From Planctomycetota bacterium (GTDB lineage Bacteria > Planctomycetota > Planctomycetia > Pirellulales > UBA1268), in the NCBI GenBank assembly GCA_037133115.1, contig JBAXOU010000001.1:5888-69887 (forward strand): DNA of 64,000 nucleotides. The letters run 5' to 3'. This document shows positions 13,332 through 50,825 of this stretch, piece after piece. The position numbers and the translations under genes are program-made. Position 1 is the first letter of the stretch, and the number at the start of each line of letters is the position of its first letter. The notes beneath the pieces were generated by a model that searched no databases, had not been told where the DNA came from, and saw nothing but the letters and a program-made list of their open reading frames with translations.

Positions 13332-15635
13332 TCAGGCCTTTCGCCACATGCCTTCGAGCACCCGCAGAACGTCGGCGGCACCGAGCCGCGGGTCCAGGGC
13401 CGTGGTGGCGATCCCCGCAACCACGCGGGTGTGCTGGTGGTCGGTGGCATCGGCGACGGCCCACTCGTCGCCACGGCGGCAGGTGATGTAGACCGAGAAC
13501 GTTCGGTGGCCGGTGCCAGGCCGCTCACCCACCACGTGCAGCACCGCCCGCGGGCCGGAGAGTCCGCCGAACAGCCGCTCGCCGATCCGGTAGCCGACGC
13601 GAACGCGACCCGAGGTCACGAGCATCGCCCGTGGAGCAAGGCGGCGGCCAGCCGCCGCGAGACCGTCGTGCACCGCCGCCAGGAACGGGTCGAGTTGGGC
13701 GAGGTCCATGATCGCCAGCGGATTGAGACCGTCTGACACCACCACCTGCACGTCGCAGCCCCCGCGCTCCGCCTCCCGCTCCGCATCGACGGCGGCCACC
13801 GACGCCTCCGCGAGTCGCTCGCCGGTGGTGGGATGGAGGATGTAGTCCCGGCGGTCGGCCGACTCAGTGAACAGCGCGAGCGAACCCACCCGCGACCGCC
13901 GGAAAGCATCGTCGAACTCCGCCCAGATGCTCTGCTTCGCGTCGGCGTAGATGCGGCGGATCGTGGTGTCGAGCGCCGGCTCCAGATCCTCCGGCCGATG
14001 ACCGTGTCCCTCGGCAAGGAACACGCCCCGTTGCCGCACCTCCTCCATCTCGCGGCGGCCCTCGGCCTGGATGACGTCATCGGTTCGGCGGTCGCCCACG
14101 GCCCGCTGGTACTGCAGGTGCACCCAGCCGGGGTCGCCGAAATGTGGCCCGGGGGCCCCTTCGGCGTCGAGCACCCCGAGCCGCTGGAAGAATCGCTCCA
14201 TCCGCTCTTCGCCGCGGCAGCCGAACTGACGGCGGAGTCGCACGTGGTCCTGAAAGCCCGTCGTCAGGTAGCCGAGCATCGGATCGACCTTGGTGGGGAG
14301 GGCCATCAGGTACGCCGGCCGCGCGGGTAGCACGCGTTCCAGACACCAGTCGAGGTCGTCGAGCGAGACGTCCATGTGGAGCGTGCCACAGACGTCGAGG
14401 CCGATGCACAGGCCGTGCAGCTTGCCCATCACGAGATCCTCGAGGCAGCAGCGAACGAGCTGCTCACGTGTACGGAAGACCTCGGGCCCGATGAATCCCG
14501 CCACGTCGTTGACATGCACCCAGGGCTCGGCCCCGCGGGCCCGCGCCACCCGGCGGGCCAACAGCCGCGCGAAGCCGTATTTCCGCGACTCGTGCACCAC
14601 CATGTCGACTCCCTGGGCGTGGCCATTGGTGAAGTCGGCTCCCTGCCCGGTCTCGAAATACAGGCCCCACGGCCCGCGGCGGGCGTCGGCATGGCGAAGC
14701 ATCTTGTCGAGTGTCAGGTCGAACGTGGCGTTGGCCGCGTCACTGCCCGCGATGCTCTGAAACCAGACGCCGGTCGTGCCTGGGGCGGCCGCGTCGACCT
14801 CGGCCTGGACGTCGATGTGCGCGAGCACGCAGTGGGGCATCGTGTCGGCGAGCCCAAAGGCCTCGAGCACGTCACGAAGCGTGTCGGATACAGCCTTCAC
14901 GCTCGCAGGATCGCTCGACACCGGATTGGTACCGAGCACCACGTCGCCAACCCCATACGCCCAGCCGTCAAAGACCTGCCAGCGAATGTCCACGGGATGG
15001 TCGGTCGGGGAGTTGGGCTGGAGACGTGCGGCGAGGCATCCGCGGCTGCCGATCTGCGTGCCAGGGAGCGGATTGAAGATCGTGTCGCCCACGCGGACGA
15101 GTTGCTCGTCGTCCATCATCCGCACGACGCAGGCGATCACGTCGCTGGAAAGACCGGGCATGATCGCTTTGATGTCAGCCTCGGGCCGAGTGAGCAGGAA
15201 GGCGGCGAGTTCACCGACCGTCCACTCCGCCGTCCGCTCCCGAGCCTCTGGGTCGAGATCGGCGGCGATCGCGGCAGACAGCGCGTCTGAGAAGGGAGGA
15301 TGCGAGTCGATGTCCCGGAGCCGCGTCCGCCCGAGCAGCTCGCGGGACGCCTGTCGCGCCGCCTCGTTCGGGGCGGCGACGCCGATCAGTTCGTCGCCCT
15401 CCTTGAAGGCGTTGGCATGGCCGAGGAACCGCGTGAAAAGCCGCTGGTTCCATCCCCCCGAGAGGCGAGTGACGTAACCGATGAGGTCGTCGAGCGGCGC
15501 ACCCTCAGCCATCGAGGAACGGATCGAGGCAGCGGCAACTCCGGCGAGAAACATGCGTCGACTTATGCCATCCATGACGGGTTGAGGAGTCCGTGGGGTG
15601 CGATGGGCCGTGTCGCTGAGGGGTGTAGGAACCAT
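13332..15635 (-). CDS. eutBC: Ethanolamine ammonia-lyase, EutB (large) and EutC (small) subunits fused in one 767-aa chain, with a Tat-like N-terminal leader
   Basis: EutB-like: AFKEGDELIGVAAPNEAARQ, GTNPVSSDP, YFETGQGADFTNG. EutC-like C-terminal ~200 aa (about 13335-13990): DRRDYILHPTTGERL, VQVVVSDGLNPLAI, VVGERPGTG. Leader: ISRRMFLAGVAAASIRSSMA|EG. ATG 15635 is preceded by GGAGAAG. The tracked ORF start at 16148 would overlap the upstream gene. Confidence 0.85.
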   Translation of the reverse strand: MVPTPLSDTAHRTPRTPQPVMDGISRRMFLAGVAAASIRSSMAEGAPLDDLIGYVTRLSGGWNQRLFTRFLGHANAFKEGDELIGVAAPNEAARQASRELLGRTRLRDIDSHPPFSDALSAAIAADLDPEARERTAEWTVGELAAFLLTRPEADIKAIMPGLSSDVIACVVRMMDDEQLVRVGDTIFNPLPGTQIGSRGCLAARLQPNSPTDHPVDIRWQVFDGWAYGVGDVVLGTNPVSSDPASVKAVSDTLRDVLEAFGLADTMPHCVLAHIDVQAEVDAAAPGTTGVWFQSIAGSDAANATFDLTLDKMLRHADARRGPWGLYFETGQGADFTNGHAQGVDMVVHESRKYGFARLLARRVARARGAEPWVHVNDVAGFIGPEVFRTREQLVRCCLEDLVMGKLHGLCIGLDVCGTLHMDVSLDDLDWCLERVLPARPAYLMALPTKVDPMLGYLTTGFQDHVRLRRQFGCRGEERMERFFQRLGVLDAEGAPGPHFGDPGWVHLQYQRAVGDRRTDDVIQAEGRREMEEVRQRGVFLAEGHGHRPEDLEPALDTTIRRIYADAKQSIWAEFDDAFRRSRVGSLALFTESADRRDYILHPTTGERLAEASVAAVDAEREAERGGCDVQVVVSDGLNPLAIMDLAQLDPFLAAVHDGLAAAGRRLAPRAMLVTSGRVRVGYRIGERLFGGLSGPRAVLHVVGERPGTGHRTFSVYITCRRGDEWAVADATDHQHTRVVAGIATTALDPRLGAADVLRVLEGMWRKA

Positions 15636-15687: not shown

Positions 15688-17631
15688 TCAGTCGTCAGCG
15701 AGGAAGCCGTGGTATCTGCCCATGTGCCAGGGGAGGAGGAAGACCGTGCCGCTGGCGAGTTCGCGACCGTCGCCTCCCTGGTCGAGGCACCACGGATCGG
15801 TATTCCAGTGGGCGAAGCTCCGCTCGTCCACTGGGAGCACCTTCCCATCGACCCGGTAGCCGCGCGGCACGTGGTCGGGGCGGCCGGGATCGATCGACTG
15901 CGTTGCCGACAGCCGCACGAGATCGAGCCGATGAGTATTCGTGTGCCGCCACTGGCAGCGGTCGAAGGGGAGGAGCACGAGAGTCTCGATCGAGTCGTCG
16001 AGCCAGTCGGCCCCGCCAAGGGCATCCCGGGCCGACGGATCGACGGAGCCGTCGGCCCCCGCCTCCTGCGCCGTTGCCACGAATGCGAAGTGGAAAAACG
16101 GATTCCGCTCCGGCCGCTCGAGGAGCCAGGAGCGGTGGAAGGCCCCAAGGAAGGCCCGCCGCAGGCCGGGATCGGACGTGTAGCGAACGAGGTGGTAGAG
16201 GTTCATGAATGCCATCTCGTCGTCCGACTGGTTGCCGGAACCGACGCCGAGCTGAACCTTCGGCGACAGGGCGTTGGCGTCGTAGGCATGGTCGCGACGG
16301 AGGGCCTCCGCGGCCGCTTCGTAGCGAGCCTCGCCGGTGACGTGCGCGGCGATCGCGAGGTAGGCGAGGAAGAAGTAGTGACCATCGAGTTCGTCGGAAC
16401 TCGTGTCGGCCTTCCACCACCAGCGGCCGTCGGCCGACTTCGGCCAGCGCGGCTCGAGCATCTTCCAGTGCGGGTCGGTCTCGCGCGTCTGCCGGTCGCG
16501 GGCCTCCTGGCCGACGTTCGGGTCGGGCCCGTCGCCGGGGAGAACGGTCCGCGCCGGGAAGCCGGGGGGCGGGGCGTGCTCGCCCCCCTGCGTCACTTCC
16601 TGGAGGAACGTCAGCGCCCGAAAGGCCCGGTCGGCCCGCCGCTTCGCGTCGGCCGAGCGGTCGTGGGCGTAGGCGAAGCACTGCGCCGCGCCGTACAGCG
16701 CGGTCCAGAGTCCGTCGTTGTCGCTGTCGATGCGGCGCGCCGTCGAGGCGTCGCCGGGGACATCGAGATCGGCCGTGGCCACGAATCCGTGCTCCGTGCG
16801 GGAGATCGACTCGTCGATGATCGCTTCATAGTGCCGCGCCTTCTCGGCAAGCGTCGTAGACCTCGCCGCGATCCAGCCGGTGCCACCGTCGGTGGCGACG
16901 ATGACATCGCCGTTGGCCGCGACGACGAGGTCGTGGACGACATCGCCGGGCAGCCAGCCTGGGCCCTGCCGGTAGCGAAAGCTGGTGCCCGACCACTCCA
17001 CCGCGCCGATCTTCGACCCGAACCACACCGTGCCGTCGGGGGCCGAGGCCACCACGGTGAAATCGGCCACGGGAAGCCCCTCGGCACCGGTGAAGAACTC
17101 CCAGCCGTCTTGGCCGCGGCGCGCCACGCCCGCCGGCGTGGCGACCACGAGCCGACCGTGCGTGTCATACGCCACCCCGCGGATGTCGCCCGTCCCCCAC
17201 ACCAGGCCCCGCTCATCGACGGGCGCAAGACGCTGCCACGGTCCATCGGCGACGCGCTCATACACTCCTTCCGACGTGGCTGCGGCCGTGGTGCCGTCGC
17301 CGCGCCGGGCCACCTGACGGACGTCTGCTTCCGGCGCGACGAGGGACAGGTTCTCGCCGCCGTCGCGCCGGGGAGCCGCGACCGAAGCTGCCGAGAACCG
17401 GCCCGTGACGAGCCGGAAGGTGGCCACGCCGTCGCCGAGATGGACGGCGCCGTCATCTCCGATCCACGTTCGCCGCGGCAGGAACCCAGGCGGAAGTCCG
17501 GGCGGCAGGTTCCGATGCTCCGTGACGCGCTGCACGAACGGGCCAACGCAGCGAGGCGACATCGGCTCCGCGGCCCCCGCAGCGGTCGCTACCACCATCA
17601 CTGCCCCAAAAAAAATGGTGGCTGTCACCAT
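15688..17631 (-). CDS. Secreted hypothetical protein (647 aa): propeller-like N-terminal half, alpha-helical C-terminal half
   Basis: ATG 17631; signal-like MVTATIFFGAVMVVATAAGAAEP. Reg_prop-like stretches (DGTVWFGSKIGAVEW, NGDVIVATDGGTGW). The W/Y/F-rich C-terminal half is unassigned. The antisense ORF 15709..17655 is rejected on composition. Confidence 0.7.
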   Translation of the reverse strand: MVTATIFFGAVMVVATAAGAAEPMSPRCVGPFVQRVTEHRNLPPGLPPGFLPRRTWIGDDGAVHLGDGVATFRLVTGRFSAASVAAPRRDGGENLSLVAPEADVRQVARRGDGTTAAATSEGVYERVADGPWQRLAPVDERGLVWGTGDIRGVAYDTHGRLVVATPAGVARRGQDGWEFFTGAEGLPVADFTVVASAPDGTVWFGSKIGAVEWSGTSFRYRQGPGWLPGDVVHDLVVAANGDVIVATDGGTGWIAARSTTLAEKARHYEAIIDESISRTEHGFVATADLDVPGDASTARRIDSDNDGLWTALYGAAQCFAYAHDRSADAKRRADRAFRALTFLQEVTQGGEHAPPPGFPARTVLPGDGPDPNVGQEARDRQTRETDPHWKMLEPRWPKSADGRWWWKADTSSDELDGHYFFLAYLAIAAHVTGEARYEAAAEALRRDHAYDANALSPKVQLGVGSGNQSDDEMAFMNLYHLVRYTSDPGLRRAFLGAFHRSWLLERPERNPFFHFAFVATAQEAGADGSVDPSARDALGGADWLDDSIETLVLLPFDRCQWRHTNTHRLDLVRLSATQSIDPGRPDHVPRGYRVDGKVLPVDERSFAHWNTDPWCLDQGGDGRELASGTVFLLPWHMGRYHGFLADD

Positions 17632-17640
17632 GCGTGGCCC

Positions 17641-18963
17641 TCACGAGCGAGTTGACTGAGGTGGCAGTCGGTTCCAGAGTGGCGCGACGGCCACTCCGGC
17701 GATGACGAGACCGGCGGCGAGCACGAGGAAGATCGCGTTCCACGGGGTCTGGCCGTCGGCGGTCGTCGAGGACACGAGGCCCGGGAGCGTGCCGCCGACC
17801 ACGCCGCCGAGCGAGCCGCAGCCGTTGATCATCCCAGCCGCGGTTGCCGCCCCCCTCCGCGTGCCGAAGTCGATCGCCGCCGCACCGCTGGCGAGCGAGT
17901 CTGGGATGTAGACGAGCAGGCCGATCACAAACAGCATCGCCCCCACCGCCCACCGCGTTGGCGGCATCCAGGGCAAGGCGGCCAACGCGACGCCGGCCGC
18001 CACGAGCGTGACCGCCATCACCGGAAACCGCCGCGTGCCGAACAGCCGGTCACTCGCCCAGCCACCCGCGATGATCCCCACGGGGCCGGCCAAGTCGAAG
18101 AGCCCGCCAAGAATGCCACTCTCGGCGACTCCCGTGCCAAGCCGCTCGCTCAGATACACGGGCGACCAAAACATGAGCAGATAGCGGAGCGGCTTGACGA
18201 GGAGATAGACGAACGAGATCACGAGGACCGTCGGCGACGTCATGACGTCCAGGATCGTCCGCCACGCCCCCTCCGGCTCATCGGCGACCCGCTCGCCCGC
18301 AACGATCACCGACTCAGCTTCGCCCGCTGCCTGCTCCGGCGACGGGAGCCCTACGTCCTCCGGCCTGTCGGCCTGCAGAATCGCAAACGCCACGCAGATC
18401 GCCGCGAGGATGCCAGCCGGCACGAAGAAGGCCATCCGCCAGCCGCCGTGCTCCGCGGCCAGGCCCGCCACGACGCCCGCGATCATCCCGCCGAGCGCGA
18501 AGTTCGTGCACCACAGCCCCATCACGCGGCCCCGCACCCGCCTCGGGAAAAACTCGCCCATGTTCTTCGTGAGCGGGGCCCAGCCACTCGACTGGAACAC
18601 GCCCTGGAGGGCAAAGAGCACACCGAGCCAGGCGGCCGTCGCGGCAGACCCCATGGCGACCGCCACCGCCACACTCCCCGCCATGCCGGCGAGGACAACT
18701 CGCCGGGTGCCAGCCCGGTCGCCGAGCACGCCCCAGAAAAACTGCCCGGCCGCGTAGGCGATGAGATACCCGCCGTCGACGGCGGCGAGCGTCTCCGTCG
18801 AAAGCCCCCACACCTCGGGCTTCTTGAGTTCGATCTTCGCCACCGACAGGCTCTTCCGCGTCAGGTAGAAGCCGGCGTAGGCGAGCCAGGTGATCGCGAA
18901 GATGCGCAGCTGCCAGGCTTTCAGCGAGGTCGTCCAGCCGCGGAGCAGCGACGACCCGCTCAT
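17641..18963 (-). CDS. MFS transporter, organophosphate:Pi antiporter (GlpT/UhpC-like, OPA) family
   Basis: WQLRIFAITWLAYAGFYLTRKSLSVAK N-terminal signature and a 12-TM-like hydrophobic pattern. The start ATG overlaps the upstream TGA (ATGA). Confidence 0.85.
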   Translation of the reverse strand: MSGSSLLRGWTTSLKAWQLRIFAITWLAYAGFYLTRKSLSVAKIELKKPEVWGLSTETLAAVDGGYLIAYAAGQFFWGVLGDRAGTRRVVLAGMAGSVAVAVAMGSAATAAWLGVLFALQGVFQSSGWAPLTKNMGEFFPRRVRGRVMGLWCTNFALGGMIAGVVAGLAAEHGGWRMAFFVPAGILAAICVAFAILQADRPEDVGLPSPEQAAGEAESVIVAGERVADEPEGAWRTILDVMTSPTVLVISFVYLLVKPLRYLLMFWSPVYLSERLGTGVAESGILGGLFDLAGPVGIIAGGWASDRLFGTRRFPVMAVTLVAAGVALAALPWMPPTRWAVGAMLFVIGLLVYIPDSLASGAAAIDFGTRRGAATAAGMINGCGSLGGVVGGTLPGLVSSTTADGQTPWNAIFLVLAAGLVIAGVAVAPLWNRLPPQSTRS

Positions 18964-20099
18964 GGTGTCACGACCACGCGGACGGCGGTGCCGGCGGCTG
19001 CCATCACGAGTGCCTCGTCAATCCGATCGAGCGGCATGACAGGACCAGCGAGCGAGGCCAGCCCGGCGCCCGCCGGCGACGCGAGATGGCTGACGGCCGC
19101 AGCAAGATCTTCGGGACGATAGTTGTGGACGCCACGGATCGTCGCCTGCCGCCGGACGATCCGCTCAGGATCGAAGGTCGCGTTTCCAACCGGCGCGACC
19201 GTGCCCGCGAGCACACACGTGCCCCCGGTGGCGATCAGACGCAGCGCGGCCTGGGCCGTCGCGACCGAGCCCCCCGCGTCGACCACCAGATCGGCGCCGT
19301 CGGTCACGAGCACGCCCGTCAAGAGACGCTCGAGCCCGGCCTCGTCTCCCGACCAAGGCACCGTGTTCGCCTGCGGCGCGGCCGCGGCCAGGAGGTCGAG
19401 CCGCTCCGGCCTGGAATCGACGACAGTCACCGAAGCCGCAGCGCGTGCTGTTGCCAGACTCGCCACCGACAGGCCGAGCATCCCCGCCCCGAGCACGACC
19501 ACGGACCGTCCACGGAGATCACCGTTGATCCGAATCGCAGCCGCCGCGGTCGCTACGGCGCAGCTGGCGGACGCGGCCGCGACGGCCGCGAGTCCAGCCG
19601 GCAGCCGCACGATCGCCGTGCCGGGCCGCAGCACCACGTGACTAGCGAAGCCCCCCGCAAGGGAATGCTCGTCGTTCGCCGCGTGGCCATACTTGAAGAG
19701 CTGTCGGCACTTCTGTGGCAAGCCTCCGCGGCAGCGGTCGCACTCGCCGCACGAGGCACACACGCTCCAGGTGATCCGCTCTCCGGCCGTGATGGTCGCC
19801 CCGTCAACGTCCACAATGTTTGGTCCCGCCCCGACCGCAACGACGGTGCCCGCTATCTCGTGGCCGAGGATCGTAGGGAGCGGATGCGGCCGGCGGCCGT
19901 GGGCAGTATGCAGATCACTGCCGCAGACCGCGCAGGCGTCGATGCGCACGAGCACTTCCCGCTCGCCGAGCGGCGGGACCGGCACATCACGCAGCTCCAG
20001 CGGACCACCGGGCCGGGTCAGCAGGGCGACACGCGCCGTCGCCACCGCTGATTCCACCGTGCCGGGCATCCGTATGGTCTCCGCGACGAAGTCATCCAT
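18960..20099 (-). CDS. Zinc-binding alcohol dehydrogenase, phosphonate-catabolism-associated clade
   Basis: CAVCGSDLHTAHGRRPHPLPTILGHEIAG zinc/catalytic motif; structural-Zn cluster CASCGECDRC; Rossmann VVVLGAGMLG. The ATG at 20099 is preferred over the tracked GTG at 20117. Confidence 0.85.
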   Translation of the reverse strand: MDDFVAETIRMPGTVESAVATARVALLTRPGGPLELRDVPVPPLGEREVLVRIDACAVCGSDLHTAHGRRPHPLPTILGHEIAGTVVAVGAGPNIVDVDGATITAGERITWSVCASCGECDRCRGGLPQKCRQLFKYGHAANDEHSLAGGFASHVVLRPGTAIVRLPAGLAAVAAASASCAVATAAAAIRINGDLRGRSVVVLGAGMLGLSVASLATARAAASVTVVDSRPERLDLLAAAAPQANTVPWSGDEAGLERLLTGVLVTDGADLVVDAGGSVATAQAALRLIATGGTCVLAGTVAPVGNATFDPERIVRRQATIRGVHNYRPEDLAAAVSHLASPAGAGLASLAGPVMPLDRIDEALVMAAAGTAVRVVVTP

Positions 20100-20244
20100 G
20101 GCGCGACCGCCTGTCACGCACCGGCGGCATTATGTCGGCGCACTGGTTTCCTCCAGCGGCGCTCATGAAAAACTGACATTTCGCCCCTGGGCGCCTCGTT
20201 ACACTCGTTCGCACACGTCCGGGCAACTCTCCGAGAACTGAGGC
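20100..20244. promoter_or_regulatory. Shared control region between divergent phosphonate/ethanolamine operons
   Basis: This ~145-bp gene-free interval lies between the first genes of the two oppositely oriented gene strings. No specific operator was recognised. Confidence 0.3.
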
Positions 20245-20826
20245 ATGATCACGAAGATTGACGACCCGGTGGCGGCGATTCTGAGGCTGTTTGCCGAGAA
20301 GGGCGACTCGGAGTACGGCGGCGAATCGGTCAACCAGCGGGAGCACGCCCTCCAGGCCGCTGCCTGTGCGCTTCGAGACGGCGCGGACGACCCGCTCGTC
20401 GTGGCGGCGCTCCTCCACGACCTCGGCCATATGCTCCACGAGCTTCCCGATGATGCTCCGGACGAGGGTATCGACGACGCTCACGAAGTGACCGCCGCGC
20501 GAAAGCTCGCTCCGTGGTTCGACACCGATGTCACCGAGCCGGTTCGGCTCCACGTGGATGCCAAGCGGTATCTCACCGGCACGGAGCCGGCCTACATGGA
20601 GCAACTGAGCCCGCCAAGCGTCACGAGCCTGATGCTGCAGGGCGGCCCGATGGACGCCGCGGCTCAGGATGAGTTTCGGCGGAATCCCCACTGGGAGGCG
20701 GCCGTGCGGCTGCGACGGTGGGACGACGAGGCAAAAGTGGAGGGTGCCGCGACCCCGACCGTTGACGAGTTCATCCCGCTGATCCGCGGCGTTGTCCGGC
20801 CCGAATTTCGCCGGGCCGCCACCTGA
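20245..20826 (+). CDS. phnZ: HD-domain phosphonate-degradation oxygenase, PhnZ-like
   Basis: YGGESVNQREHALQAAACALRDGADDPLVVAALLHDLGH; later HVDAKRYL and LRRWDDEAK. This pattern matches the phosphonate-operon HD family as I recall it. Confidence 0.75.
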   Translation: MITKIDDPVAAILRLFAEKGDSEYGGESVNQREHALQAAACALRDGADDPLVVAALLHDLGHMLHELPDDAPDEGIDDAHEVTAARKLAPWFDTDVTEPVRLHVDAKRYLTGTEPAYMEQLSPPSVTSLMLQGGPMDAAAQDEFRRNPHWEAAVRLRRWDDEAKVEGAATPTVDEFIPLIRGVVRPEFRRAAT

Positions 20827-20829
20827 CCC

Positions 20830-21618
20830 ATGACGACGCCCATCCGCCTCGTCGTCGCCGACCTCGCCGGCACCACGATCGACTTCGGCTCGTGCGCCCC
20901 GGCCGGCGTGTTCGTCGATCTCTTCGCCAGCCACGGCATCCCGATCACCGCGGCTGAGGCCCGCGGCCCGATGGGCACCGCCAAGCGGGACCACATCGCG
21001 GCGCTCGCGGCCCTGCCTCGGGTGGCCGCCGCCTGGGCGACGGTACACGGGCGGCCCTTCGCTGAGTCCGACCTCGACGAACTCTACGCGGAGTTCATCC
21101 CGCTCCAGTTGGCGTCACTCCCCGCGTTCGACGCCCTGATCCCGGGCACGCTCGAGGCGGTCGCGGCGTTGCGGCAGGCGGATGTCGCCGTCGCCGTCAC
21201 GACCGGATACGACGCGGCCATGACGGCGGTGGTGCTGGAGGGCTGCCGGCGGCAGGGCTTTCTTCCGGATGCGGCCGTCTGCGCCACCGAGGTCGCCGCG
21301 GGACGTCCGGCACCCTGGATGATCTTCCGCGCGATGGAGAAGACGGGCGTCTGGCCGCCAGCAGCGGTCGTCGCCGTGGGCGACACGCTCGCCGACATCG
21401 AGGCCGCGCGAAATGCCGGCGTCTGGGCGGTCGGCGTCACCGCGACCGGCAACATGCTGGGGCTGTCGCGAGCGGAACACGACGCGCTCGAACCCGGCCG
21501 CCGGTCCGAACTGCTCGAGACCGCTGGCGAGCGGATGCTCGCGGCCGGTGCCCATGCGGCGATCGGCGGCATCGGCGACCTTCCCGGAGTGCTGCATCGC
21601 TTCGGGGGCGCACCGTGA
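20830..21618 (+). CDS. phnX: Phosphonoacetaldehyde hydrolase (phosphonatase)
   Basis: Collinear with canonical PhnX: DLAGTTIDFGSCAPAGVF, EARGPMGTAKRDH (Schiff-base Lys region), TTGY, AAGRPAPWM, VGDTLADIEAARNAG. Confidence 0.85.
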   Translation: MTTPIRLVVADLAGTTIDFGSCAPAGVFVDLFASHGIPITAAEARGPMGTAKRDHIAALAALPRVAAAWATVHGRPFAESDLDELYAEFIPLQLASLPAFDALIPGTLEAVAALRQADVAVAVTTGYDAAMTAVVLEGCRRQGFLPDAAVCATEVAAGRPAPWMIFRAMEKTGVWPPAAVVAVGDTLADIEAARNAGVWAVGVTATGNMLGLSRAEHDALEPGRRSELLETAGERMLAAGAHAAIGGIGDLPGVLHRFGGAP

Positions 21619-22757
21619 CGGATCCGACCGACGTGATCGTGGTCGGCGGTGGGATCATGGGCCTCGCCTTCGCCTGGGAGGCGGCGCGGCGCGGCCGCCG
21701 CGTCACGCTCCTCGAGCGGAGCGACGCCGCCCGTGGGGCCAGCATTCGCAACTTCGGCATGGTCTGGCCGGTGGGGCAACCGGCCGGCGAGCGCCACGCA
21801 CTCGCGATGCGAAGCCGCAGCCGCTGGCTCGAACTCCGCGACGCCGGCGCGGTCTGGGCTGCCGAGTGCGGGAGCGTGCACGTCGTCTTCGAGGAGGACG
21901 AGGCGCGGGTGCTGGCGGAGTTTGCCGACCGGGCGCCGGGACTCGGCGTGCCGTGCGAACTCCTCGCCGGCCCGGAGGCGGCCCGGCGGTTTCCCGCGAT
22001 CCCCGCGGATGCCAGGGCGGTGCTCTGGAGTCCCACCGAACTCGCCGTCGATCCGCCCAGGGCGATCGCCGCCGTCGCGGCCCACCTCGCCACCGCCCAC
22101 GGCGTGGACATCCGCTTCTCGACCACGGTCGTCGGCATCGACATGCCCGTCGTCACCACGTCGTGCGGGCAACGGTTCGAGGCGCCGCAGGTGGTCGTCT
22201 GCGGCGGCGCCGACTTCGAGACGCTGTTTCCCGACCTCTGGGCCGCCTCGGGCACGCGCCGCTGCAAACTCCAGATGCTCCGCACCCGCCCGCAGCCGGA
22301 CGGCTGGCGGCTCGGCCCTCACGTGGCCGGTGGGCTGACGCTCGCCCACTACGCCGGCTTCGAGATCTGCCCGTCGCTGGCGGCGCTGAGGCAACGGCTC
22401 GCCGCGTCGATGCCTGCGCACACGGCCGCCGGCATCCACGTGATGGCCTCGCAGAACGAGGCAGGCGAGGTGATCCTCGGCGACTCGCACGACTACGACG
22501 CGCCACTCGATCCGTTCGAGTCCGAGGCGATCGACGACCTCATCCTCGCCTACGCCCGCCGCATGCTCCGCCTTCCCGATTGGTCGATCGCCGCCCGCTG
22601 GCATGGCGTCTACGCAAAAGGGCCTGATCCGATCCACTTCGCCGCGGAGCCCCAGCCCGGCTGCTTCGTGATGGGGTCGCCAGGGGGTGCCGGCATGACG
22701 CTGGCGTTCGGGCTCGCCGAGCGGTGGTGGAACTTCCGCGCCGCGACTGGAACGTGA
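21615..22757 (+). CDS. FAD-dependent oxidoreductase, aminophosphonate-associated clade (DAO family)
   Basis: N-terminal VIVVGGGIMGLAFAWEAARRG dinucleotide fold. GTG start with GTGA overlap onto the phnX stop. Confidence 0.8.
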   Translation: MTDPTDVIVVGGGIMGLAFAWEAARRGRRVTLLERSDAARGASIRNFGMVWPVGQPAGERHALAMRSRSRWLELRDAGAVWAAECGSVHVVFEEDEARVLAEFADRAPGLGVPCELLAGPEAARRFPAIPADARAVLWSPTELAVDPPRAIAAVAAHLATAHGVDIRFSTTVVGIDMPVVTTSCGQRFEAPQVVVCGGADFETLFPDLWAASGTRRCKLQMLRTRPQPDGWRLGPHVAGGLTLAHYAGFEICPSLAALRQRLAASMPAHTAAGIHVMASQNEAGEVILGDSHDYDAPLDPFESEAIDDLILAYARRMLRLPDWSIAARWHGVYAKGPDPIHFAAEPQPGCFVMGSPGGAGMTLAFGLAERWWNFRAATGT

Positions 22758-25021: not shown

Positions 25022-25243
25022 CGAACCCGCCGCACGCGACACATTTGCGGAATCCCGGTATACCTACCGCAGTTCGCTCACGATCCTCGCGATCGGGTGC
25101 GATGTGAGGAAAAGCCGACCGGCCGCGAGGCCGCGGGCGAACCACGCTCGACACGGCGTCTGGTGGCGATTCACCCCACGCCTCACGGCGTTGGGCTTGC
25201 ACCAGAGACCTCCAGATCGTCATTCACGAAGGAGACCACGTCG

Positions 25244-26557
<1,314 letters not shown>

Positions 26558-43100: not shown

Positions 43101-44084
43101 TCACCGGCTGATCGCTTCGCCGCCGGCACGGCTCACGAGCGCCTGGAGCACCGCGGGCTCGATGATGTCGTCGAGCGGCCTGACGGATGCGTCACCTGCC
43201 AGCACCTGCACGACGCCGCCGCCGATCCGCGACCGGGGTTTGAGCGACTGCTCGAGGGGGCTTCCCGTCGAGCCCAGGCCACTGCCGGTGAATCGGCCGC
43301 AGTCGGAGCCGTAGGGCCAGGAATAGCGCGGCGACGCCCAGGTGCAGCCGCCGTCGAGCGTGTAGTCGCCGCTTTCGGCGATCATCAACGTTCGCGAAAG
43401 GCCGTCGGTCACGTCCTTCAGCCGCGTCGGCTTCGCGGCGATCGCGACGGTGTAGCTCGAACCGCCCTCGATCCAGCCGAGCCCCTCGGGCACGAGGATG
43501 CCGGAGAACTCGCGCGGCGAAACAGACGACGCGTAGTACCAGCGATCGAGTCGTCGCTCCGGATCGGGCAGGGCAGGGCCCGCACCGAGCAGGGCGGCGA
43601 AGTCGAGACCGCCGGCGGCGTGCGAGCGACCGTTGTAGATCGGCACCCGCTGGTCGACGATCTCCGGCTCCTGGTCCTCGGGCCGGCAGGCGAGGCAGTA
43701 GGCCTCGTAGATGGCCGCCAACGCGGGCTCCTCGATGAATCCCAGGATCGCGATCGACCACGACTGGGGCCTGATGAAGCCATCCATCTCGCCGGCGGCG
43801 TAGGCGTCGGTGTTCTCCTTGTGCGACACGGTGCCCGGCCGCGGGCGGCCCGACGCGAACGGCAAGGCCCCCTTGGCGTCGTGGTGCGCGATGATCGCGA
43901 TGCCGATCTGCCGGAGGTCGTTCTGGGTGCTCGCCCGGGCGGCCGCCTGACGGGCCTGCTGCACGGCCGGCAGCACGAGGCCGATCAGCGACGCGATGAT
44001 CGCCACCACGACGAGCAACTCGACGAGGCTAAAGCCGTCACGGCGCAGGCGAGCAGCCATCGGCGCGGTCCGCGAGACATTCAT
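43101..44084 (-). CDS. Divergent DUF1559-like pseudopilin protein
   Basis: [35 protein letters not shown]. The C-terminal motif is degenerate ([14 protein letters not shown] instead of H-X9-DG). ATGA overlap with the upstream giant gene. Confidence 0.8.
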
Positions 44085-47324: not shown

Positions 47325-47744
47325 CTACTTGTTGGTGATGTCGATGTCGAACACGTTTGGCTTGCCCGAGACCACCTGAAAGCTGAGCGGGGACGAATCC
47401 CCGGCATACTCAGTTGGAATCCGCGCGCCTTTGCCATCTTCGGAGTCCAACCGGACCTTCACCACGTACTTTCCCGCCGCGGCGCCGACTTTCCTGCCGA
47501 GCCCGACTCGGGCCAGGCGGTAGACGCCGTCAGCATCCGTCGTGCCGATCGCCCTGGGCAACTCCTTCACCTCGGGCTGAAAGATCACCATGATGCTCTT
47601 GGCGGGCTTCCCATCCACGATCACCTTGCCCGTGACGTCGGTGATGCCCAGCCACCATTCGCCGCAGCCCGCAAGGCACGGCAGCATGATCGCCATGGCA
47701 ACGGCTGCGATTCGAGTTTGCTGACGCATAACTCCCGCACTCAT
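47325..47744 (-). CDS. Lipoprotein, carboxypeptidase-regulatory-like beta-sandwich (DUF1559 partner)
   Basis: Lipobox LAGC|G. VTGKVIVDGKPAKSIMVIF...TTDADGVYRL...GKYVVKV...NVFDIDITNK. Paralogue of the 48905 protein. ATGA overlap with the upstream DUF1559 stop. Confidence 0.8.
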   Translation of the reverse strand: MSAGVMRQQTRIAAVAMAIMLPCLAGCGEWWLGITDVTGKVIVDGKPAKSIMVIFQPEVKELPRAIGTTDADGVYRLARVGLGRKVGAAAGKYVVKVRLDSEDGKGARIPTEYAGDSSPLSFQVVSGKPNVFDIDITNK

Positions 47745-48832
47745 GGCCTGGTCCCCCGACCGTCGTTCCGCAGCCCCAAACCATAGAGCACAAGATCATC
47801 CGTGTTCTCCGAGACAAACGTCACGGAGCCATCAGAAAAAAGGAACTGCGCTCCACCACTGTGGAAACTGTTCCAGTACTTGCCGTTCTGGGCTGTGGTG
47901 CTGAAGAAGTTGATCGTGCTCGGCACGATGCTGGTGACGGCACCATAGGGCGGGTTTGTGGCCACGCGGGCATAGCACCGCTGGGCCCCGCCGATGCTGT
48001 TGCCAGAGCCGGTGCGACCGTTTCCAGCCCAGACTGCCGCGAGACTGCCCTGGAAGTTTGCGGCCGCGGCGGCCGACGCCGCTCCGCACCGTTCTCCGAT
48101 CAGGAGGGTCTTGCTCATGCCGTCGGAAAAATCCTTGATCTTCAGCCCAAGCATGCCGGCTCCAGTCGCGAGTGGACCAGACTTCGCGCTCCCCACGATC
48201 TTCGGCCAGCCGAAGAGCGCTCCACCGGGGTCGCCATCGGTATCGGGCCCGGGCACCGCCGCCGACGGGCTCGTCGTCGTGGTCGGACTGTAATCGCCGC
48301 AGCTGGCCACGTAGTTGCTGGTGGCTAGAGCTGGATCGGAGCCCGTCGCACACGCCAGGTAGATGTTCGACGCGCTTCCGAAATCGCAGAGCTTGTTGAG
48401 GTCCTCCGTGATGTCCGACGGACAGCGATACATCGAAACCTTCGTCTGGAGAGCCGCCCCGACGGTTGAACCGCCGGACTTCAGCATGTTGACGGCGGTG
48501 GTGAGGGCGTTCGTCGACGGCGAGAGCGTGTCGTACAGCGTGCCGAGTTCCGCATACGGCATGATGAACACGCCCCAGCCCCAGCAACAATCCCCTTGGC
48601 TGCCCAGGTTGGTGGTGTGCTGATGACCAGACGGCAGCCGCCTCTTCGAACTCTCGTGGGTGAGCACCGCCAGCCCGATCTGCTTGAGGTTATTCGAGCA
48701 GGCGCTGCGGCGAGCCGCCTCGCGGGCCGTCTGCACGGCCGGCAGCAAGAGGCCGATCAGCGTGGCGATGATCGCGATCACCACCAGCAGTTCGACCAAC
48801 GTAAACCCGCGACGCCGTAGGGGAGATGCCAT
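47741..48832 (-). CDS. DUF1559 / H-X9-DG pseudopilin-like protein (363 aa)
   Basis: [51 protein letters not shown]; FHSGGAQFLFSDGSV. Start chosen at ATG 48832 inside the tracked ORF. Confidence 0.9.
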   Translation of the reverse strand: MASPLRRRGFTLVELLVVIAIIATLIGLLLPAVQTAREAARRSACSNNLKQIGLAVLTHESSKRRLPSGHQHTTNLGSQGDCCWGWGVFIMPYAELGTLYDTLSPSTNALTTAVNMLKSGGSTVGAALQTKVSMYRCPSDITEDLNKLCDFGSASNIYLACATGSDPALATSNYVASCGDYSPTTTTSPSAAVPGPDTDGDPGGALFGWPKIVGSAKSGPLATGAGMLGLKIKDFSDGMSKTLLIGERCGAASAAAAANFQGSLAAVWAGNGRTGSGNSIGGAQRCYARVATNPPYGAVTSIVPSTINFFSTTAQNGKYWNSFHSGGAQFLFSDGSVTFVSENTDDLVLYGLGLRNDGRGTRP

Positions 48833-48904
48833 CGGAATCCTCCGCGTAAGAAAGTCGTTTTCCAGGCTACCATCGGCCGGTAAACCTGTCGCCTTCACCT
48901 GCCG

Positions 48905-49394: not shown

Positions 49395-50486
49395 TCACTG
49401 TGGCATCGACGGCGTCGCCGCGTCGATGATCGGCGTCGTCATCGAACCATACGTCGTGTTGTTGCCGGCCAGCCCCTCGTCTCGCTTCGCCATCTTCTGA
49501 AGAATCGCGTAATCGCAGTTCTCGGAGATGAACATCACCGAGGCGTCGCCGAGCAGGAAGTTGGCCCCGCCGCGGTGAAAACTGTTATAGGCCTTGCCGT
49601 TGTTGGGACTCAGGAAGTCATTGATCGGCAGGCTGATCATCCTGCCGTAGCACCGTCCGGCCCCCTTCACCGATGTGCCAGAGCCCGGCCGGCCATTGCC
49701 CGCCCAGACTCCGGCAAAAGACCCCTTGCCGGAGGCGGCCGAACTGAACGCCGTGAACGAGTCGCCGCCGCACCGTTCGCCAAGAAAAATCGTCTTCGAT
49801 AGGCCGTCGGCGATGTCCTTGAGTTTCAGGCCGAGCATCGTGTCGCGACCAAGAAACGGGCCGTCGGGCGGATCGGTGCCGTCAGTCTTGCAGGTCCCGG
49901 CGTCGGGATTGTCCCAGCCGCAGTTTTCGTGAGGCGGGTTATTGCCGGATGAGGCCACATAGTTCGACGTGCCAAGCGCCGGATCGCTGCCGGTCTCACA
50001 GGCGAGGATCGACCCGCCGCCGCTCGTGCCACCAAAGTCGGCGAGGTTATTCGTCTCGGGAGTCGAGTCGGACGGGCAGCGATGCGAAGCCACTCCCGAC
50101 TTCAACGCCACTGCCGACGCACTCACGCCACCGCTCTTGAGCAGGTTGCAGGCGGTGAGCAACGTGGTGCTGGTGGGATTGAGCGCGTCGTAGGTGTTAC
50201 TGGCCTCCATGAAGGGGAAGATGAACACCGCCCAACCCCAGGCGGGGTCGCCCGCCTTGCCCGCGTACTTATGGCCCGCCGGCAAGCGCTTGCGGGCGTT
50301 CTCGAAGTTCGTGAGGCCGAGCCCCAATTGCCGCATATTGTTGGAGCAGGCGCTACGGCGGGCCGCCTCGCGGGCCGTTTGCACGGCCGGCAGCAAGAGG
50401 CCGATGAGCGTGGCGATGATCGCAATCACCACGAGGAGTTCGACAAGGGTAAAGCCGCGACGAGCGACCCGGTTGATGGCGAGCAT
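49395..50486 (-). CDS. DUF1559 / H-X9-D(A) pseudopilin-like protein (363 aa)
   Basis: [53 protein letters not shown]; [24 protein letters not shown] before ATG 50486. Confidence 0.9.
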
Positions 50487-50825
50487 GAGATCCTCCGCGG
50501 CCTGCCGAAAACGAAAATCGCGTGGGCTGGCGAGTTGTGTTCGCGAAACGCTGCCTGCTAACGACACCCTCACCCACACCGCCCTGATCTTAGTAGCCAA
50601 ATCTGTCACGCATCAACCCAATCATTGGCAGTTTTTACGCCGTGATTCGAATATTCCGGGATCACACCGCGAGTCGCGAACGCGTACTGCAATGGCCTTG
50701 CTTTCGTTTGCGTAAATTGGCGACCAACAGGTTGCGGCAAAACCGTCGCCGCGATTACACTCTTCTCCGCGTGGATGGCGAATGTCGCCGTCGTGCGTTT
50801 TTCGAGTTTGGGGAGGGAATCAGTC
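50487..50825. promoter_or_regulatory. Divergent intergenic control region between the DUF1559 array and the 2179-aa adhesin gene
   Basis: 339-bp gene-free stretch that looks more AT-rich than its surroundings (e.g. AATCATTGGCAGTTTTTACGCCGTGATTCGAATATTCCGGGATCAC, containing a GTGAT...ATCAC inverted repeat). No promoter motif was assigned. Confidence 0.3.

Follow-up and report, generated by a model that had tools for sequence, protein, structure and literature searches.

Adenosylcobalamin (AdoCbl) radical enzymes are held to be proteins of the cytoplasm or of microcompartments, where they rely on ATP-driven reactivation. The ethanolamine ammonia-lyase (EAL) of Acinetobacter baumannii works without EutA or a metabolosome and is found at the cell periphery and membrane (PMC9426561). 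In full-text literature searches, which included the eut review PMC5821096, no fused EAL was described, nor one that bears a signal peptide or is exported. Then, could an EAL be made as one chain and sent out of the cytoplasm? Here we analyse a minus-strand gene on a 64,000-nucleotide stretch of Planctomycetota DNA (assembly GCA_037133115.1, contig JBAXOU010000001.1, positions 5,888 to 69,887), which joins EutB and EutC in one frame behind a predicted twin-arginine translocation (Tat) signal. The whole stretch is called the window, and coordinates are counted from its first letter. At the level of sequence, the protein is a new, widespread and robust version of a known enzyme family, namely a single-chain EAL with a predicted export tag, and a conserved export signal on such an enzyme challenges the above view of where AdoCbl radical enzymes work.

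The single-chain gene and its product

An uninterrupted minus-strand frame runs from ATG 15635 to the stop codon at 13334-13332 and encodes 767 aa, with no internal stop or frameshift. The original prediction, made from the letters of the window, had read an EutB and an EutC part in one frame, and the single open reading frame (ORF) indeed bears both Pfam domains. The peptides that it quoted (AFKEGDELIGVAAPNEAARQ, GTNPVSSDP, YFETGQGADFTNG, DRRDYILHPTTGERL, VQVVVSDGLNPLAI, VVGERPGTG and MDGISRRMFLAGVAAASIRSSMAEG) are all found in the ORF, and its three candidate ATGs sit precisely at 15635, 15575 and 15512. The layout is as follows.

13332..15575, minus strand: EutB-EutC single-chain gene from the preferred ATG 15575, 747 aa, beginning MDGISRRMFL..., with the stop codon TGA at 13334-13332
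15576..15635, minus strand: possible 20-codon N-terminal extension from the alternative start ATG 15635, MVPTPLSDTAHRTPRTPQPV
15507..15575, minus strand: predicted Tat signal peptide, residues 1-23 (n-region MDGIS, RR, h-region MFLAGVAAASI, c-region RSSMA)
14154..15431, minus strand: EutB part (large subunit, TIM barrel), PF06751
13959..14153, minus strand: EutB-EutC junction, where the end of EutB runs into the helical N-terminal arm of EutC
13341..13958, minus strand: EutC part (small subunit), PF05985

With residues numbered from ATG 15635, the Pfam EutB family (PF06751) matches residues 69-494 (E = 4.1e-128, 428 bits against a cut-off of 25) and the EutC family (PF05985) matches residues 560-765 (E = 3.2e-29, 102 bits against a cut-off of 25.8). 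The NCBIfam EutB subfamily model NF011649 gives 549.5 bits, marginally below its cut-off of 554, and the EutC equivalog NF003971 gives only 78 bits against a cut-off of 230. Since the former is just missed and the latter falls far below its cut-off, these profiles indicate that the protein is clearly EAL-like, yet belongs to a divergent branch with a divergent EutC.

The substrate pocket is that of a conventional EAL. In a HMMER alignment to E. coli EutB (3abo_A), off which the residue positions were counted, the equivalents of R160, Q162, N193, E287, F329, D362, M392, L402 and Y404 are all conserved. The first seven of these, R160 to M392, are reported as substrate-binding and catalytic residues of the E. 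coli enzyme (Shibata et al. 2010; Mori et al. 2014). In the 121-sequence family alignment the EutB substrate-binding columns are invariant or nearly so, and across the family the same holds for the EutC motifs DRxDYILxP..GE, VVSDGLN, GRVR and GERPG.

An AlphaFold model built from the 121 sequences reached a mean predicted local distance difference test score (pLDDT) of 91 and a predicted template modelling score (pTM) of 0.89. Its residues 1-30 lie outside the fold with low pLDDT, comprising a helix at 6-16 and disorder at 15-25, and order begins at about residue 31. In Foldseek comparisons the model matched 3abo_A (EutB) with a target-normalised template modelling (TM) score of 0.89 and 32% identity to E. 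coli EutB in the structural alignment, while the EutC chains 3abo_B and 7xrm_B were matched at target-normalised TM 0.72-0.75 over about 253 alignment columns. As for the junction stretch, the consensus is conserved through it in family alignment A2, its pLDDT exceeds 85 and it is not of low complexity. Because the Foldseek alignment to the EutC chains spans those 253 or so columns, the apparent linker is, according to the model, the helical N-terminal arm of EutC, with no extra domain inserted. We give a probability of roughly 0.6 to the reading that the gene encodes a functional AdoCbl-dependent EAL with both subunits in one chain behind a Tat signal peptide.

A vicinal cysteine pair was also seen in the protein. 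Throughout the fused family C376-C377 (RCCLED; 14445-14450, minus strand; numbering of the 747-aa form) is invariant, the corresponding E. coli EutB sequence being RAGLED, and C249, C396 and C411 are further invariant cysteines.

The fusion among relatives

A search of protein databases for single-chain EutB and EutC, as the original prediction had proposed, gave 5,352 matches, and the best 120 of them are all full-length fusions of 720-855 aa with both domains present. Among the sources named for them are Planctomycetaceae, Pirellulaceae, Tautonia sociabilis and Planctomyces sp. SH-PL14. A genome scan with one genome per species found at least 524 relatives, among which the fusion and the leader were examined in the best 80 loci, and 80 of these 80 are full-length fusions. 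Most of them belong to Planctomycetota, and the nearest, at 95% identity, are Planctomycetota metagenome-assembled genomes (MAGs; L005 and L006). Isolates with the fusion include Tautonia sociabilis, Archangium gephyra, A. minus (complete genome), A. violaceum, Myxococcus vastator and Vitiosangium, and MAGs labelled Haliangium, Anaeromyxobacter, Riflebacteria and Sphingomonadaceae are also among the fusion loci.

In independent assemblies, isolate genomes included, no stop or frameshift separates the EutB and EutC parts, so that the same uninterrupted fusion in 120 proteins and 80 loci excludes an assembly artefact. Public annotation labels the fused relatives merely as "EutB". Among the shorter representative matches, which look truncated or frameshifted, no clear example of an unfused EutB with a Tat leader was found. 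Judged on these sequences, the fusion and the leader described below are far beyond chance.

Some distant fusions (P0126, of 1110 aa, P0129, P0133, P0135 and P0150; 40-45% identity) have long N-terminal extensions that look eukaryotic, and the N-terminus of P0126 resembles a C2 domain by eye. These long forms suggest that fused EALs may occur outside bacteria.

The twin-arginine leader

Counted from ATG 15575, the window leader reads MDGIS-RR-MFLAGVAAASI-RSSMA/EG, with SRRMFL at residues 5-10. By inspection and with a script of our own, the h-region was judged to consist of 11 weakly hydrophobic residues, and the c-region to combine a basic residue with an S-x-A cleavage motif, after which EG follows. 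Such a basic c-region residue is a feature that serves to avoid the general secretory (Sec) pathway. The c-regions of close relatives are alike (…SPTRAAA/E, …SPSRASA/A and …GVARA/D). Cleavage after SMA would leave a near-normal EutB N-terminus, as originally predicted, the predicted mature end being about 7 residues longer than that of E. coli EutB.

The leader is conserved across the family, and the hydrophobic segment with its RR is kept in orthologues down to about 55-60% identity. The motif RR-x-[FL]-[LIV] occurs within the first 10 or so residues in about 105 of the 120 called proteins, and in alignment A2 the conservation of R6 and R7 is 90% or more. Of the 106 called relatives that bear a leader, 100 have the RR among their first 10 residues, and the median RR index in called relatives is 3.5. 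When the in-frame upstream DNA was translated, independently of any gene caller, an RR leader directly preceded by a start codon was found at about 70 of the 80 loci. A leader rule was also applied, which asks for RR ahead of the EutB core and, after the RR, for a window of 10 residues whose mean hydropathy is 0.9 or higher. It was positive for 177 of 200 relatives against a background of 31 of 518 neighbouring ORFs (6%), several of which are genuine Tat proteins, for example DUF1501. After the RR, the highest Kyte-Doolittle hydropathy over 10 residues has a median of 1.74. No leader was present in 18 of the 200 relatives, and the Riflebacteria relative L075 has a Sec-like hydrophobic N-terminus without RR. 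With curated hidden Markov models (HMMs), PF10518 (TAT_signal) matches the N-termini of 45 of 119 relatives (best E 8e-5) and TIGR01409 those of 49 of 119 (best E 2.5e-5), while the sole HMM match of the window leader is a weak one to TIGR02811 (formate_TAT, E 0.063).

Other relatives carry export signals of other kinds. In Myxococcota the RR leaders end in a lipobox Cys, as in MRRRTFMKSVMLGGSALALASC (L054), …VSVLGC (L033) and …SYVLGC (L081), and P0130 (42% identity) likewise combines an RR leader with a lipobox Cys (RRRSFL…TSGC). P0121 (776 aa, 54% identity) has SRKEFL, in which RK replaces RR, followed by …LLFNSC, a lipoprotein signal in the style of Bacteroidota, and P0127 (776 aa, 44% identity) has a hydrophobic Sec-like or anchor-like N-terminus without RR. 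That one enzyme bears such different predicted signals supports the view that the family is located outside the cytoplasm. A lipobox is sensible only for an exported protein and its Cys is therefore an independent sign of export; as a predicted feature, the Myxococcota lipobox is the strongest independent argument for it. A Myxococcus xanthus lipoprotein proteome lists no "ethanolamine" entry in its supplement.

Two observations on Myxococcota may be added. Their fused EALs are of two kinds, one with RR and lipobox (L054, L047, L049, L062, L033, L068 and L081) and one without a leader (L066, L072 and L073), and the genus Archangium holds both the predicted Tat lipoprotein and the leaderless kind. 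The leaderless paralogue has uninformative neighbours, namely NUDIX, transglutaminase-like, hydrolase and acyltransferase genes. In L050 (Archangium gephyra PVMSAZ), which is otherwise a 97% identical orthologue, the leader upstream of 8001 is cut by an in-frame stop and only …SSALALAAC remains in frame, either through an assembly frameshift or because the leader is pseudogenised.

The start codon and a cytoplasmic alternative

Both upstream starts give an RR leader, since ATG 15635 would only lengthen the n-region ahead of the RR. This ATG has a GGAG 7 nt upstream. Only relatives at 94-95% identity (L005, L006, L009 and P0001) share the 20-residue extension, which those at 86% identity or less do not have, and GC content at third codon positions, judged by eye over the 20 codons 15635-15575, did not separate coding from non-coding. 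ATG 15575 puts the RR at residues 6-7 (codons at 15555-15560), as across the family; chosen by homology, it fits the family best.

The third start, ATG 15512, was the alternative of the original prediction, under which the RR motif would never be translated. It was rejected because the leader is conserved and many orthologues have no equivalent Met; such a start would delete a segment kept in some 90% of relatives. It belongs to a broader alternative, that of a cytoplasmic enzyme, which either starts at 15512 or carries a vestigial, non-exporting RR that serves at most in chaperone or cofactor-insertion proofreading as in NarG. Such an enzyme would conform to other AdoCbl enzymes, which are cytoplasmic and need ATP-dependent repair (PMC5821096), and would agree with leaderless fused relatives and with a window leader below the Tat HMM thresholds. 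However, the h-region and c-region, and not the RR pair alone, are intact in more than 170 relatives, the lipobox variants make sense only with export, and most orthologues have no internal Met matching 15512. Apparent short forms such as P0004 are truncated gene calls of leader-bearing sequences: L007, 98% identical to P0004, bears the leader. We consider a purely cytoplasmic enzyme unlikely.

A proposed route to the periplasm

The signals described above make a Tat-exported periplasmic EAL the most likely reading. The chain would fold in the cytoplasm, where cobalamin would probably be loaded between the EutB barrel and the EutC domain. The Tat translocase would then recognise SRRMFL and export the folded protein, and signal peptidase I would cleave after SMA (residue 23), or, in the Myxococcota relatives, lipidation at the lipobox Cys would take the place of cleavage. 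In the periplasm, ethanolamine would be converted to ammonium and acetaldehyde, so that the cell would gain nitrogen with no need of an ethanolamine transporter and the toxic aldehyde would stay out of the cytoplasm without a microcompartment. The fusion would ensure 1:1 co-export of both subunits under one signal, and may ease Tat export, as a single signal takes along both domains together with the cofactor that lies between them. The orphan context of the gene, described below, fits export because a transporter, an aldehyde dehydrogenase and a shell would be needless. The route also agrees with precedent, in that A. baumannii EAL needs neither EutA nor a metabolosome (PMC9426561). A second precedent is that corrinoid dehalogenases pass through Tat.

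A variant of this route is that the leader is translated and targets Tat or Sec but is uncleaved or tethering, with the enzyme fixed to the cytoplasmic membrane on its outer side and not free in the periplasm. The Myxococcota orthologues are predicted lipoproteins, the N-terminal stretch of P0127 is transmembrane-like without RR, and the EAL of A. baumannii is membrane-associated (PMC9426561), all of which would agree with anchoring. On the other hand, the c-regions of the window protein and of its close relatives are of the A-x-A type (SMA, RAAA, ASA and ARA) that is typical of cleaved Tat signals, and an h-region of 11 residues has neither the length nor the hydrophobicity that a stable anchor needs. 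For the window protein we therefore hold such tethering to be improbable and prefer a cleaved, soluble periplasmic form.

Several points weigh against export. Canonical EAL is a complex of about 500 kDa with the composition (alpha-beta)6, which is too large for Tat, and export would therefore need a smaller assembly state. The periplasm has no ATP-dependent reactivase that could repair cofactor damage, a role of EutA that has been stressed (PMC5821096). The window leader has no match to PF10518 or TIGR01409 at E up to 1; of the "good Tat signal" claimed at the outset, SRRMFL, the short h-region, the S-x-A site and the conservation in the family hold, but the Tat HMM thresholds are missed. No tatA or tatC is found among the annotated genes of the window, the window annotation alone being covered. 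Finally, there are fused EALs without a leader. P0033 is leaderless at the DNA level, with GGAGG, ATG and an 84-nt intergenic region, and for P0050, called leaderless, the upstream gene ends 10 nt before it. The Myxococcota group L066, L072 and L073 starts with MAESL… and is 69% identical to the lipobox forms, distant canonical-type fusions (31-36% identity) have no leader, and some leaderless fusions are very close to leader-bearing ones. Since leaderless fusions exist, the fusion arose or persisted without export, and the leader was gained or lost repeatedly. On these predicted N-termini, the fusion is not solely for export and the enzyme is not confined to one compartment.

With these points in the balance, the wider proposal, that the family is the first extracytoplasmic AdoCbl radical enzyme, a Tat-exported and in Myxococcota lipid-anchored single-chain EAL that harvests ethanolamine nitrogen in the periplasm, stands in our judgement at even odds. 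If true, periplasmic placement would replace the microcompartment in keeping acetaldehyde off the cytoplasm, and the enzyme, having no ATP-dependent reactivase, would be unusually resistant to inactivation or would exchange its cofactor with periplasmic cobalamin.

Gene context and the phosphonate cluster

The EAL gene stands alone in most genomes, with no conserved neighbour in SH-PL14, in a Pirellulaceae MAG or across 82 loci, and no transporter, eutA, aldehyde dehydrogenase or shell gene is conserved beside it in the 82 loci. When ORFs at these loci were clustered in search of conserved operon partners, only shadow ORFs of the gene itself came up, together with sulfatase and DUF1501 genes. 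The latter two are each present in about 10 of the 82 loci and belong to families abundant in planctomycetes, and their occurrence looks like chance adjacency.

The original prediction had stated that the window has no eutA, shell gene or eutR. For shell genes of bacterial microcompartments this holds within a tblastn search with EutM and PduA as queries, which gave nothing significant in the window. For eutA and eutR it extends only to the neighbourhood, as no eut genes lie within about 10 kb of the EAL gene and no explicit search of the whole window was made for these two. Such an absence is not unusual in itself, because short eut loci are common (PMC5821096, PMC9426561). An Rfam scan of the window matched no family, cobalamin riboswitches included, and a promoter and terminator scan of the flanks of the EAL gene gave nothing informative.

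Upstream of the EAL gene lie the following features, with scores from the family models.

15688-17631, minus strand: unannotatable 647-aa ORF between the major facilitator superfamily (MFS) transporter and the EAL gene, with a signal-peptide-like N-terminus
17641-18963, minus strand: MFS organophosphate-type transporter
18960-20117, minus strand: TIGR03366 "phosphonate catabolism associated" zinc-dependent alcohol dehydrogenase (Zn-ADH), 305 bits against a cut-off of 328
20245-20823, plus strand: PhnZ-like HD oxygenase, 212 bits against a cut-off of 215
20830-21615, plus strand: PhnX phosphonoacetaldehyde hydrolase, 308 bits against a cut-off of 220
21615-22754, plus strand: TIGR03364 FAD oxidoreductase, 421 bits against a cut-off of 285

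The 647-aa ORF has no Pfam or NCBIfam match, and its homologues are found only in the closest relatives (L004, L005, L006 and L009), the L004 version being 729 aa long and overlapping the stop codon of the MFS gene.

This neighbourhood bears on a further alternative, hinted at in the original prediction, in which the enzyme belongs to the phosphonate cluster (17641-22757, both strands) and converts 1-hydroxy-2-aminoethylphosphonate to phosphonoacetaldehyde, the chemistry of PbfA, instead of acting on ethanolamine. The MFS transporter, the TIGR03366 dehydrogenase, the PhnZ-like oxygenase, PhnX and the TIGR03364 oxidoreductase speak for it, as does the identical gene order in L004 and L006. However, the cluster adjoins the EAL gene only in the window and in these two relatives, at 95% identity; L008 (86%) already has no such genes upstream, nor has any other locus. 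With its ethanolamine pocket unchanged, the enzyme is unlikely to take a phosphonate substrate: its active-site residues are those of E. coli EAL, a phosphonate would find neither obvious room nor a charge partner there, and an exported enzyme would be apart from the cytoplasmic PhnX. The hint is thus not upheld, and we regard a phosphonate role as very improbable; a periplasmic EAL acting on ethanolamine is preferred.

Elsewhere in the window, three paralogous genes with DUF1559 and an N-terminal methylation motif (43101-44084, 47741-48898 and 49395-50609, minus strand) are a planctomycete hallmark, consistent with the taxonomy from the nearest relatives. A xylose isomerase ORF (25097-26557, plus strand) is matched by its family model from residue 51 only, and its roughly 50 unmatched N-terminal residues are probably an over-long ORF call.

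Implications

The family is seen in at least 80 species genomes, and pattern matches suggest hundreds more. It raises the question of how a B12 radical enzyme is loaded, passes Tat and stays active without ATP. It would offer an alternative answer to acetaldehyde toxicity, with the periplasm instead of a protein shell, and may explain how planctomycetes and myxobacteria obtain nitrogen from membrane-lipid ethanolamine without a dedicated transporter. In addition, a natural single-chain EAL is a handy scaffold for structural and engineering work.

Comparison with known systems

Compared with canonical EutB and EutC (E. coli 3ABO; Listeria EutB 2QEZ), the window protein has the same folds and identical substrate-binding residues, and the EutC motifs DGLS/N and GERPG are conserved in it. 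It differs in being one polypeptide instead of two, in its N-terminal Tat-type leader, in having no EutC microcompartment-targeting peptide and in having no eut accessory genes nearby. Unlike in the Eut metabolosome, the N-terminus of its EutC part is fused to EutB and cannot bear a free targeting peptide. The short eut systems, such as EutBC of A. baumannii (PMC9426561) and eat-eutBC of Pseudomonas aeruginosa (PMC5821096), likewise have no shell and no EutA. However, their EALs consist of two subunits without a signal peptide, and their genes lie beside those for a transporter, an aldehyde dehydrogenase and a regulator.

Two further groups of enzymes are similar in other respects. The corrinoid reductive dehalogenases (RdhA/PceA) are Tat substrates, which receive their cobamide in the cytoplasm and are exported as folded holoenzymes. 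Their redox chemistry relies on cob(I)alamin and Fe-S and not on an AdoCbl radical, their fold is unrelated and, unlike the window protein, they have a dedicated chaperone and a membrane anchor. The E. coli copper amine oxidase TynA and methylamine dehydrogenase are periplasmic and release ammonium and an aldehyde from a primary amine. Their cofactors are topaquinone (TPQ) with copper or tryptophan tryptophylquinone (TTQ), their folds are unrelated and their reaction is oxidative instead of a radical elimination, but their physiological logic is the one proposed here, namely deamination outside the cytoplasm.

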